Assembly (NCBI GenBank): GCA_030829985.1 | Contig: JAURNW010000024.1 | Coordinates: 95 to 64,094, forward strand | Direction: 5' to 3' | Length of the DNA: 64,000 nucleotides | From: Gammaproteobacteria bacterium | GTDB taxonomy: Bacteria > Pseudomonadota > Gammaproteobacteria > Eutrophobiales > Eutrophobiaceae | Shown here: piece after piece, positions 8 to 1,576 of the stretch | Layout: the number at the start of each line of letters is the position of its first letter | How positions within the stretch are numbered: position 1 is the stretch's first letter | Notes under the pieces: generated by a model | What the model was told of the DNA's origin: nothing | Seen by the model: the letters and a program-made list of their open reading frames with translations, nothing else | Databases searched by the model: none | Position numbers and translations under genes: made by a program

Positions 8-1576
8 TTAGGCTAATTGGTCCACATGGGGCTGACGGGGTACAGTCGTTACTTTTTTATCCTTAAAGCCAGAGACTATCTTTTTAATGAGATTATTGTC
101 TTCAACCTCATCTAATAAAGCATTAATGTGCGCAAGCGCTATAGCGGGCTGTAAATTACTAATGCTTAACGAATTTGCACTAACCAATGCCTTCTGCGCA
201 ACATATCCAAAAGAAGAATCGCCAGTCTGTTCAAATATTTTTGAATAGATATAACCCATTTCATAATTTGCAGTTACAGATTCGGGATGTCGCTGCACCA
301 ACCTTTCTCCCAATAATCTCATGTCACCCCAATCATGAGCGCGGCTTATTGTTATCGAAGAAAAAAGTATAGTAATAATAATAAAGATCACATTACTTTT
401 TAATGTTTTTACTTTTTCTACCAACAAAACCAAGGAAATAACAAAGATAAATATTATGCCGATAGAGGGAAAATAATTTCTATGTTCGTGTACCAGATTA
501 AGTGGAAATATAGTCGATTCTAATAAATGGCCGATTATAAAAAATGATAGCCCTAAAGCAAGCCATGACAATTGCCTTGGAAATTTAATTGCGGATGCGG
601 TAATCAGAATAAATGCCAGAATTGACCATAAAGTAGAAATCGGTTGAACAAGGCTCCTGGAAACAGCAAAGTCATCATGGTACAAGCCAAAGAGATTTGC
701 CTGGGGCAATAATATTTGGAATATATAAAACCATAGAACTCGACACTCGGTTAGTACTCTCTCTGCTAGATTAAAATCTCTACTATTATAATTTGCAGTT
801 AGCTCACCATTGAACAGTAAAATTCCTGCAATAATCGAGGGCAACACAAGCACAAAAACATAAAACACATATAAAGACCAGCGTTCTTGAATTGTGATAA
901 CACGCCATTGAAATACGAAGCATTCAATTGCGAACAGGAATAAAAATAGAAGCGCCCCATTTTCCTTGCATAACGCCGCCAGAATCCCTAATAACAGAAT
1001 AAAGCCAAGCTTTATAACCGTTTCTTTAATGCTTTTAATTTTGCTATCGCGTAAATCAATATAATAATAAATTCCTAACAAGGTAAACGTCGCTGCCATA
1101 CTAGTCATGCGTTGCACTACGTAAAGCACACCTGTTAGGTTGATCGGGTGCACCGCCCATAACAATGCTACCCAAAATGCCAAATGTTCCATCTTTATAT
1201 TATTCATCACCAGACTTTTACGTCTTTGCATCACACTCAATAGACAGCTCATGACAATAAAAACAAGAACCCCGTTTATTGCGTGAACAATGATATTAAA
1301 GACTTTAAAAGATGCTGGTGAAAAACCGCTAAGATGGTAGTTCAGATAGAAACTCAACATTGCCAACGGCCGACCCAATGGCCCGGATACACCCGACTGC
1401 ATTGCTGACCATGAACTAGAGAGCGCTAAATCAGAATTATTTATTGCTGAATTTTGTAAGATATTAAAATAATCATCATAAATAAATCCGCCGGGCAACC
1501 CGGGCAAATAAATTAATACGGCTACGAGTAACAGCAAAAAAATATAACACCATTTATATTTTATATTCGGAATCAT
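8..1576 (-). CDS. Polytopic GT-C fold membrane glycosyltransferase with C-terminal TPR region (PMT/TMTC-like, DUF1736-type); candidate pilin O-glycosyltransferase
   Basis: 522 aa with many predicted TM helices. First periplasmic loop carries F-I-Y-D-D-Y-F-N-I...N, resembling the DD/DE motif of PMT, TMTC and ArnT GT-C enzymes. Soluble C-terminal ~120 aa looks TPR-like. Sits immediately downstream of pilA on the same strand. Stop codon TAA at 8-10. Confidence 0.5.
   Translation of the reverse strand: MIPNIKYKWCYIFLLLLVAVLIYLPGLPGGFIYDDYFNILQNSAINNSDLALSSSWSAMQSGVSGPLGRPLAMLSFYLNYHLSGFSPASFKVFNIIVHAINGVLVFIVMSCLLSVMQRRKSLVMNNIKMEHLAFWVALLWAVHPINLTGVLYVVQRMTSMAATFTLLGIYYYIDLRDSKIKSIKETVIKLGFILLLGILAALCKENGALLFLFLFAIECFVFQWRVITIQERWSLYVFYVFVLVLPSIIAGILLFNGELTANYNSRDFNLAERVLTECRVLWFYIFQILLPQANLFGLYHDDFAVSRSLVQPISTLWSILAFILITASAIKFPRQLSWLALGLSFFIIGHLLESTIFPLNLVHEHRNYFPSIGIIFIFVISLVLLVEKVKTLKSNVIFIIITILFSSITISRAHDWGDMRLLGERLVQRHPESVTANYEMGYIYSKIFEQTGDSSFGYVAQKALVSANSLSISNLQPAIALAHINALLDEVEDNNLIKKIVSGFKDKKVTTVPRQPHVDQLA

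Follow-up and report, generated by a model that had tools for sequence, protein, structure and literature searches.

A pilA-linked GT-C/TPR glycosyltransferase homologue, truncated by an IS3-family element, represents a large unannotated family of putative pilin-cassette enzymes

This analysis concerns the open reading frame (ORF) at 8..1576, minus strand, of a 64,000-nucleotide stretch (the window) of contig JAURNW010000024.1, from a gammaproteobacterium of the family Eutrophobiaceae. The ORF lies downstream of pilA and runs from an ATG start to a TAA stop over 522 amino acids (aa), with no internal stop or frameshift found; an identical copy of its protein is present on at least 10 public contigs. 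It encodes a C-terminally truncated homologue of a pilA-linked, GT-C-fold glycosyltransferase bearing tetratricopeptide repeats (TPR). We interpret its family as inner-membrane GT-C enzymes encoded in pilin cassettes, which would O-glycosylate pilin from a polyprenyl-phosphate sugar, and the window copy as truncated by an insertion sequence (IS) and probably impaired or inactive; we give this reading a probability of about 0.7. The pilin-cassette GT-C/TPR glycosyltransferase is a known kind of system, of which this family is a large and unannotated representative and the window copy a damaged member.

From hydropathy and the helices of an AlphaFold2 model (mean predicted local distance difference test, pLDDT, 89.5; predicted template modelling score, pTM, 0.90), we placed 11 transmembrane (TM) helices at approximately residues 5-26, 87-118, 129-142, 153-177, 183-203, 205-222, 229-255, 313-331, 337-349, 371-388 and 394-416. 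Short loops rich in K and R occur on alternate sides and are assigned to the cytoplasm, which sets the N-terminus inside and the C-terminus outside. This topology exposes the long loop 256-312 and everything after residue 416 to the periplasm, together with the sequence FIYDDYFN (residues 31-38; 1463..1486, minus strand), read directly from the protein and putatively the catalytic DD motif. The original prediction had described a multi-TM protein after pilA with this motif in its first loop, and the ORF, the motif, the helices and the placement were all confirmed. The two aspartates, D34 and D35, lie 8 residues past TM1 and are invariant in 81/81 aligned homologues. Further family invariants retained in the window protein are R69 P70, H143 P144, Q155 R156, K204 E205, Y284, H300 D301 D302, H350, E353, E364 H365 R366 N367 Y368 and P370, and every periplasmic loop of the family holds invariant acidic, basic and histidine residues.

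On the predicted structure, the membrane (catalytic) domain (residues 1-416; 329..1576, minus strand) gives the protein a GT-C-like fold. The top eight Foldseek matches of the window model in the PDB were all GT-C enzymes (PglB, STT3, AglB, yeast Stt3 and Pmt4, each with probability 1.00), the Pmt4 match being restricted to 291 columns of the membrane core. These matches were obtained with the truncated window model; a search with a full-length model was swamped by TPR proteins. Sequence searches of the PDB chains with the protein and the family profile returned TPR proteins only and no GT-C enzyme. The window protein had no Pfam match at E <= 0.1, including Wzy_C (PF04932), and this absence together with the structural matches upholds the earlier assignment to the GT-C enzymes and not to the Wzy_C ligases. 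The more specific proposal of a PMT/TMTC architecture fared less evenly. The layout of 11 TM helices followed by TPRs is shared with the TMTC proteins, and counterparts of their motifs M1, M4 and M7 are recognisable by inspection, but the Pfam models PMT, PMT_2 and TMTC_DUF1736 failed, with no match among 11 diverse family members even at E <= 1, where TPR families alone were found; membership of the window protein in those families is thus not demonstrable. When the family profile was compared by hhalign with one PMT_2 protein encoded on a neighbouring contig, the two appeared unrelated, although with a single-sequence template the comparison was uninformative.

At the family level the C-terminus is TPR-like by sequence: the family profile matches consensus TPR proteins (E 1e-9) and the TPR domain of OGT, and 4/11 family members match Pfam TPR_19. 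In the AlphaFold models this domain is all-helical, without an MIR beta-trefoil, and comprises 11 helices in full-length homologues. The window protein retains five (about 2.5 hairpins; residues 417-510; 47..328, minus strand), as judged against the model of the full-length homologue P0002 (mean pLDDT 90.6, pTM 0.88). The TPR-like C-terminus proposed earlier therefore holds for the family, whereas about half of the domain is missing from this copy. Recognition of the pilin by the TPR domain, also proposed, is a reasonable candidate function.

The presumed acceptor is encoded by pilA (1719..2147, minus strand), a 142-aa type IVa major pilin (Pfam Pilin 9.7e-23, N_methyl 1.6e-10). The glycosyltransferase ORF begins 142 nt downstream on the same strand, and between the two genes lies a bidirectional, intrinsic-terminator-like hairpin (1664..1693), AAAAAACCCCTCC-TCGG-AGGGGTTTTTT, bordered by an A-run at one end and a T-run at the opposite end, which would allow termination in both directions. 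It was recovered by a pattern scan, and the 144-nt intergenic RNA reached -36.3 kcal/mol on folding (z = -4.2 against shuffles), in agreement with the terminator that had been called there. A hairpin with a T-run separates pilA from the gene in 48/59 related loci, compared with 9/80 control segments. The order pilA, terminator, accessory gene has been described as an attenuator, a role that was put forward, and in part tested, with other accessory genes of pilins (PMC11841053), and the suggested attenuated read-through from pilA is plausible in this light.

The family extends far beyond this contig. A profile search of 1.84 billion cluster representatives recovered 14,769 proteins (50%-identity clusters) at E <= 1e-30, and the best 150 matches were nearly all 580-690 aa long. 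In their sources, family members are named 'hypothetical' or 'tetratricopeptide repeat protein', and several are called 'protein O-mannosyl-transferase' by JGI. We surveyed the gene context of 80 loci (numbered with the prefix L) in species-representative genomes, mostly Gamma- and Betaproteobacteria and including Acinetobacter, Pseudomonas, Variovorax, Undibacterium, Dechloromonas, Gallionella and Methylococcales; 76 had enough upstream sequence to be scored. A type IVa pilin gene stands immediately upstream on the same strand in 59 of these 76, and upstream of a tandem paralogue in nine more, so that 68/76 are pilA-linked; in a few loci (L059, L084, L085) no pilin gene is present nearby. Two or three tandem GT-C/TPR paralogues follow a single pilA in 22/80 loci (for example L009, L018, L032, L036, L046, L073, L075, L076, L082 and L083). 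The phmmer scores of these paralogues against the window protein vary widely, from about 150 to 540 bits, which suggests diversified enzymes adding different sugars or acting at different sites. Separately, in 13 loci (L006, L008, L030, L031, L033, L041, L050, L052, L071, L079, L081, L082 and L083) the glycosyltransferase gene stands behind a tandem pair of major-pilin genes.

The second recurrent partner is a family 2 glycosyltransferase (GT2), a homologue of which was found in 55/80 loci; in most of them it is an ORF of about 290 aa that comes next after the gene in the same direction. In the five loci checked, this GT2 matched models of AglJ, dolichyl-phosphate hexose transferase, PpgS, ArnC and PgfS, each across nearly the whole model, and hydropathy placed one or two C-terminal hydrophobic helices in the four examined. 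Its predicted architecture is that of the GtrB/ArnC/DPM1 class, the makers of polyprenyl-monophosphate sugars. GT-C enzymes use polyprenyl-phosphate sugars. The closest relative with an intact cassette (73% identity) has the order sucCD-pilS-pilR-MT-(MT/GT2)-pilA-[629 aa]-GT2-GT1, MT denoting a methyltransferase. It shares sucCD, pilSR, the MT/GT2 gene (80% identity) and pilA with the window, and an orthologue of its partner GT2 is absent from the window.

These observations are consistent with the following scheme. An intact cassette would comprise pilA, an attenuating terminator, one to three GT-C/TPR copies and a membrane-anchored GT2 of GtrB/ArnC/DPM1 type, all transcribed from the pilA promoter, with the terminator keeping the enzyme sub-stoichiometric to the pilin. 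The GT2 would charge undecaprenyl phosphate with a monosaccharide at the cytoplasmic face, the lipid-linked sugar would be flipped, and the GT-C enzyme would move the sugar onto Ser/Thr residues of the inner-membrane-anchored pilin, which the TPR domain would hold in the periplasm for acceptor recognition. The glycosylated pilin would then be assembled into pili, plausibly altering their surface properties and phage susceptibility, as for TfpW and TfpO.

The window copy departs from this arrangement at its 3' end. Close homologues are 620-650 aa long and the full-length homologues listed span 576-691 aa; at 522 aa, the window protein is shorter than every one. Alignment with homologues breaks after residue 510/511, and the tail that follows, VPRQPHVDQLA and a stop, has a pLDDT below 50. 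Positions 1-56 of the window are identical (100%) to positions 9521-9576 of contig L001, where an IS3-family element some 1.5 kb in length occupies 9533-11027; its OrfA (HTH_Tnp_1, 120 aa) and OrfB (rve/rve_3, 278 aa) are in a frameshift arrangement. Window positions 1..44 (minus strand) are thus the left inverted-repeat end of this element, the remainder of which lies beyond the window, and the last 11 codons and the stop of the ORF are IS-encoded. The left end reads TGTACCCCGTCA and the far end ...GACGTACA, an imperfect inverted copy of it; the far end was also read as ...GACGACGTACA, opposite the left end. These repeats were read by eye, since an automated repeat scan missed them because they are imperfect. 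The same gene-IS junction occurs in five independent contigs from at least four samples; four of these contigs break 40-100 nt into the IS, as is usual for assemblies at repeats. The breaking of metagenome assemblies from several samples at the element suggests that it is probably multicopy in the organism; no second copy was found within the 64-kb window.

The loss comprises the last ~118 residues, that is, six of the eleven C-terminal helices or about three TPR hairpins, together with a CX5C pair conserved in 69/81 homologues; the membrane domain keeps its 11 TM helices and its full set of invariant residues. Neither L001 nor the window contains a trace of the lost 3' end, and a search of both for the partner GT2 was equally negative. 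On the far side of the IS, L001 carries a GT1 gene without its ~120 N-terminal residues, so that a truncated glycosyltransferase gene stands at either end of the element, and no target-site duplication surrounds it. Provided that L001, the only contig to cross the IS, is not chimeric at the repeat, these features point to a deletion mediated by the IS and not to a simple insertion. The GT1 fragment was considered as an orthologue of the GT1 that follows the cassette of the closest relative, and was rejected at 24% identity; the exact extent of the deletion is consequently not reconstructable. The original prediction had highlighted the TPR domain but missed its truncation; the absence of the usual downstream GT2 and the membership in a very large family had escaped it as well.

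Truncation and the missing partner GT2 make reduced or lost activity likely, and the window copy is, on its sequence, probably impaired or inactive. A stronger form of this view, that the gene is a dead pseudogene here and that the pilin is unglycosylated or modified by other enzymes, has in our estimate close to an even chance, falling a little short of it. It would accord with a protein shorter than all of the full-length homologues listed, with the lost CX5C pair, and with a deletion that, by the evidence beyond the IS, may have taken the partner GT2 too. Against it, the whole membrane domain and all of the invariant catalytic residues are intact, the frame is open and reaches its stop only after a further 11 codons of IS sequence, the allele has persisted across several samples, and the evidence for deletion depends on a contig that could be chimeric. 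Any residual activity of the truncated protein would need a donor from the GT2 genes upstream of pilA. Inactivation would in any case concern the present-day activity of this copy only, and is compatible with the interpretation of the family as pilin-cassette glycosyltransferases.

Several points weigh against that interpretation. The acceptor and the donor are both inferred from gene neighbourhood, and no flippase gene was identified in the cassette. The membrane domain is recognised by no Pfam, NCBIfam or PDB sequence model. The truncated allele is fixed across several samples, where it differs by 0-1 nucleotides, and this could reflect either retained function or a clonal pseudogene of recent origin. 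Finally, the gene after the partner GT2 differs from locus to locus (L063 7747-9474, L052 7944-9350, L006 7889-9124, L025 7757-8842) and encodes an ABC exporter (ABC_membrane and ABC_tran), a Wzx-like Polysacc_synt flippase, a GT1/GT4 or a UDP-GlcNAc 2-epimerase. The cassette may draw its flippase or its sugar-nucleotide supply from some of these genes, and others may belong to adjacent O-antigen or capsule loci; where the position is taken by a GT1, an ABC transporter or a flippase of Wzx type, the donor could be more elaborate than a monosaccharide.

Upstream of pilA, the window holds a sugar-modification cluster of about 7 kb (2482-9504), placed between pilA and pilR (9575-10882). Immediately next to pilA is a methyltransferase-GT2 fusion (2482..3912, minus strand; 476 aa, no TM helix) whose GT2 portion is similar to polyprenyl-phosphate hexose synthases; the nearest genome in which the cassette is intact has a syntenic counterpart at 80% identity. 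A TM-less GT2 of 256 aa (4464..5234, plus strand) matches PpgS/AglJ-type polyprenyl-phosphate sugar synthases over nearly the full length of those enzymes, and a polytopic membrane protein of 438 aa (5850..7166, plus strand) with at least nine hydrophobic segments gives a sub-threshold match to Pfam GT87 (E 1.1e-4, 22.4 bits; cut-off 25). The cluster also includes a SAM methyltransferase (214 aa), an NAD-dependent epimerase/dehydratase (319 aa) and a Methyltransf_13/14 sugar C-methyltransferase-like protein (409 aa). The closest relative (L086) has the MT and MT/GT2 genes alone at this position, which makes the five plus-strand genes of the window look like an insertion; they could form a second pair of polyprenyl-phosphate sugar synthase and GT-C acting with methylated sugars. 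By sequence resemblance, the fusion protein is a candidate donor-synthesis enzyme and the GT2 at 4464..5234 a second one, and the GT87-like protein may be a second GT-C able to extend a glycan. That these three genes supply or extend a glycan is speculation.

A sigma-54-like -24/-12 element, TGGCATCGATCATGCT (TGGCAT-N5-ATGCT; 2264..2279, minus strand; two mismatches), is found 117 nt before the start codon of pilA. Such matches are no more frequent across the window than expected by chance, and the position alone is suggestive, weak evidence by itself; the presence of pilS and pilR near pilA is consistent with an element of this type. Among the surveyed loci, two metagenome-assembled genomes that carry the cassette have labels that look doubtful, 'uncultured Enterobacteriaceae bacterium' (L006, CAYMPA010000002.1) and 'Klebsiella pneumoniae' (L045, CAMATU010000021.1); both show the pilSR synteny typical of environmental gammaproteobacterial relatives.

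Pilin glycosylation alters pilus surface chemistry and in P. aeruginosa protects against pilus-specific phages, and only two types of pilin-glycosylating enzyme have been characterised, TfpO/PglL and TfpW. The family described here is very large, has a membrane domain without a Pfam or NCBIfam model, and is present in cultivable Acinetobacter, Variovorax, Undibacterium and Dechloromonas. Cultivable bacteria in which the cassette is intact include Acinetobacter johnsonii, A. towneri, A. tianfuensis, Novimethylophilus kurashikiensis La2-4 and Variovorax ginsengisoli. The conserved three-gene cassette offers a minimal system, open to direct testing, in which bacterial proteins would be O-glycosylated from a lipid-monophosphate sugar, and could serve as a tractable bacterial model for TPR-based acceptor choice by TMTC-type enzymes. 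The window copy is an IS-truncated allele, and its annotation should say so.

The neighbourhood evidence also bears on whether the enzyme is dedicated to pilin at all. It might instead be a general periplasmic protein O-glycosyltransferase, PMT/TMTC-like or PgfM-like, acting on many Ser/Thr-rich envelope proteins, with pilin as one substrate or a chance neighbour. The TMTC-like layout and motif set, the JGI naming, the three loci without a nearby pilin gene and the likeness of the partner GT2 to PgfS, which serves a multi-substrate streptococcal GT-C system, would all fit such an enzyme. However, linkage to pilA in 68/76 loci, on the same strand and with a common terminator layout, is far tighter than a general enzyme predicts, and general O-oligosaccharyltransferases such as PglL are typically unlinked to pilE. 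We consider a general role unlikely and prefer the dedicated pilin-cassette glycosyltransferase, which can be set beside several known systems.

The first is TfpW of the P. aeruginosa/paraeruginosa group IV pilin cassettes, a protein of 646 aa with 11 TM helices, a periplasmic TPR domain and an essential DDX in loop 1, which is encoded right after pilA and adds D-arabinofuranose (D-Araf) to pilin (bioRxiv 10.1101/2020.04.19.049825). TfpW homologues adjoining pilA have been reported in many species. Members of the present family resemble it in being encoded directly downstream of pilA in the same orientation, behind a terminator, in their presumed pilin O-glycosylation, and in the build of full-length homologues, which are about 630-650 aa long with a cytoplasmic N-terminus, 11 TM helices, a periplasmic C-terminal TPR domain and DD in loop 1. 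This likeness raises the question of true orthology to TfpW, that is, of a D-arabinofuranosyl transferase or polymerase using polyprenyl-phosphate-D-Araf. Yet the TfpW motif YX6PFX7P of periplasmic loop 4 occurs, by regular expression, in 0/404 full-length family proteins, the comparison with TfpW (GenBank AAM52060.1) being made through its published description. In the same loop the family has [WF][FY]Y-x6-P, so that Y284-x6-P291 is conserved and the PF and the distal P are not. The partner is a GtrB/DPM1-type GT2, a maker of polyprenyl-phosphate-hexose-type donors, instead of the PRPP (phosphoribosyl pyrophosphate) transferase/DprE1/DprE2 pathway to D-Araf; in the absence of a search aimed at them, D-Araf genes came to notice neither in the window, over 16 kb, nor in the cassettes. 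Nor was a tfpX-like gene seen, and the present copy is IS-truncated. The published TfpW homologue of Acinetobacter venetianus is missing among the roughly 200 Acinetobacter family members recovered. Homology searches, including those seeded with Pseudomonas and Acinetobacter proteins, and a cluster look-up returned no P. aeruginosa or A. venetianus protein, but 'hypothetical' and 'TPR' proteins of other species. Orthology to TfpW is accordingly quite improbable, more so than a general role.

TfpO/PilO/PglL enzymes also glycosylate pilin, and in P. aeruginosa group I and certain Acinetobacter strains their genes come right behind pilA, but they have an unrelated fold with a Wzy_C domain and use undecaprenyl-diphosphate (Und-PP)-oligosaccharide donors. 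That the window protein is such an O-oligosaccharyltransferase, or a non-catalytic pilin accessory or chaperone (TfpX/Y/Z, FimB-like), would find support only in the position downstream of pilA, common to all of these, and is highly improbable: the Wzy_C ligase and TfpY-like chaperone readings are ruled out by the lack of a Wzy_C match, the GT-C fold matches and the invariant acidic, basic and histidine residues of every periplasmic loop, and 11 TM helices with TPRs contrast with the three helices and small beta-sheets of TfpY-like proteins.

The proposed pilin cassette follows the two-step scheme of the streptococcal PgfS/PgfM1-PgfM2 system and of the Gtr-type (GtrA/GtrB/GtrC) systems of extracytoplasmic glycosylation: a polyprenyl-phosphate monosaccharide is made by a membrane-anchored GT2, and its sugar is then transferred outside the cytoplasm by a GT-C enzyme. 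Pgf acceptors are protein Ser/Thr residues, and the partner GT2 of related loci matches both the PgfS and the ArnC models; the present cassette differs in that no GtrA-like flippase was found in it, in the TPR domain of its GT-C enzyme and in its tie by position to pilA. Set against the protein O-mannosyltransferases Pmt1/2/4 and POMT, the protein matches neither Pfam PMT (PF02366) nor PMT_4TMC, and its extracytoplasmic domain is all-helical TPR where those enzymes have a lumenal MIR domain.

In overall build, the family most resembles the eukaryotic TMTC1-4 protein O-mannosyltransferases of the GT-C/PMT clan, which likewise have 11 TM helices followed by extracytoplasmic TPRs and a long functional TM7-TM8 loop with a small helix (PMC7801869). 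The seven TMTC motifs, M1-M7, are DD, SHKSYRP, RxD, KE(T/Q)xxT, DW, PxxP and ERxxY (PMC7801869, Table 4). By inspection of equivalent extracytoplasmic loops (EL), M1 corresponds to D34 D35 in EL1, M4 to the KE of K204 E205 N206 in EL3, and M7 to E-x-R-x-Y followed by x-P-S-x-G (E364-Y368, P370) in EL5; M2 (R69 P70, RP only) and M5 (D302 with an aromatic residue; D plus F/I) are partial matches, and M3 (RxD) and M6 (PxxP) are absent. A donor made by a DPM1-like GT2, as we infer for the cassette, and the name given to homologues by JGI extend the likeness. By contrast, TMTC_DUF1736 (PF08409), PMT_2 (PF13231) and PMT are unmatched even at E <= 1, and the protein is bacterial and periplasmic, with pilin as presumed acceptor where TMTC enzymes act on cadherins. 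TfpW, which the original prediction did not name when it looked to PMT/TMTC, is the closest functional precedent and TMTC1-4 the closest architectural relative, and we file the protein in neither family. Tentatively, and at odds somewhat below even, the cassette may represent a distinct and very widespread pilin-glycosylation system of Gamma- and Betaproteobacteria, separate from TfpW with its D-Araf and TfpO with its Und-PP-oligosaccharide, and a bacterial counterpart of the eukaryotic TMTC O-mannosylation pathway.

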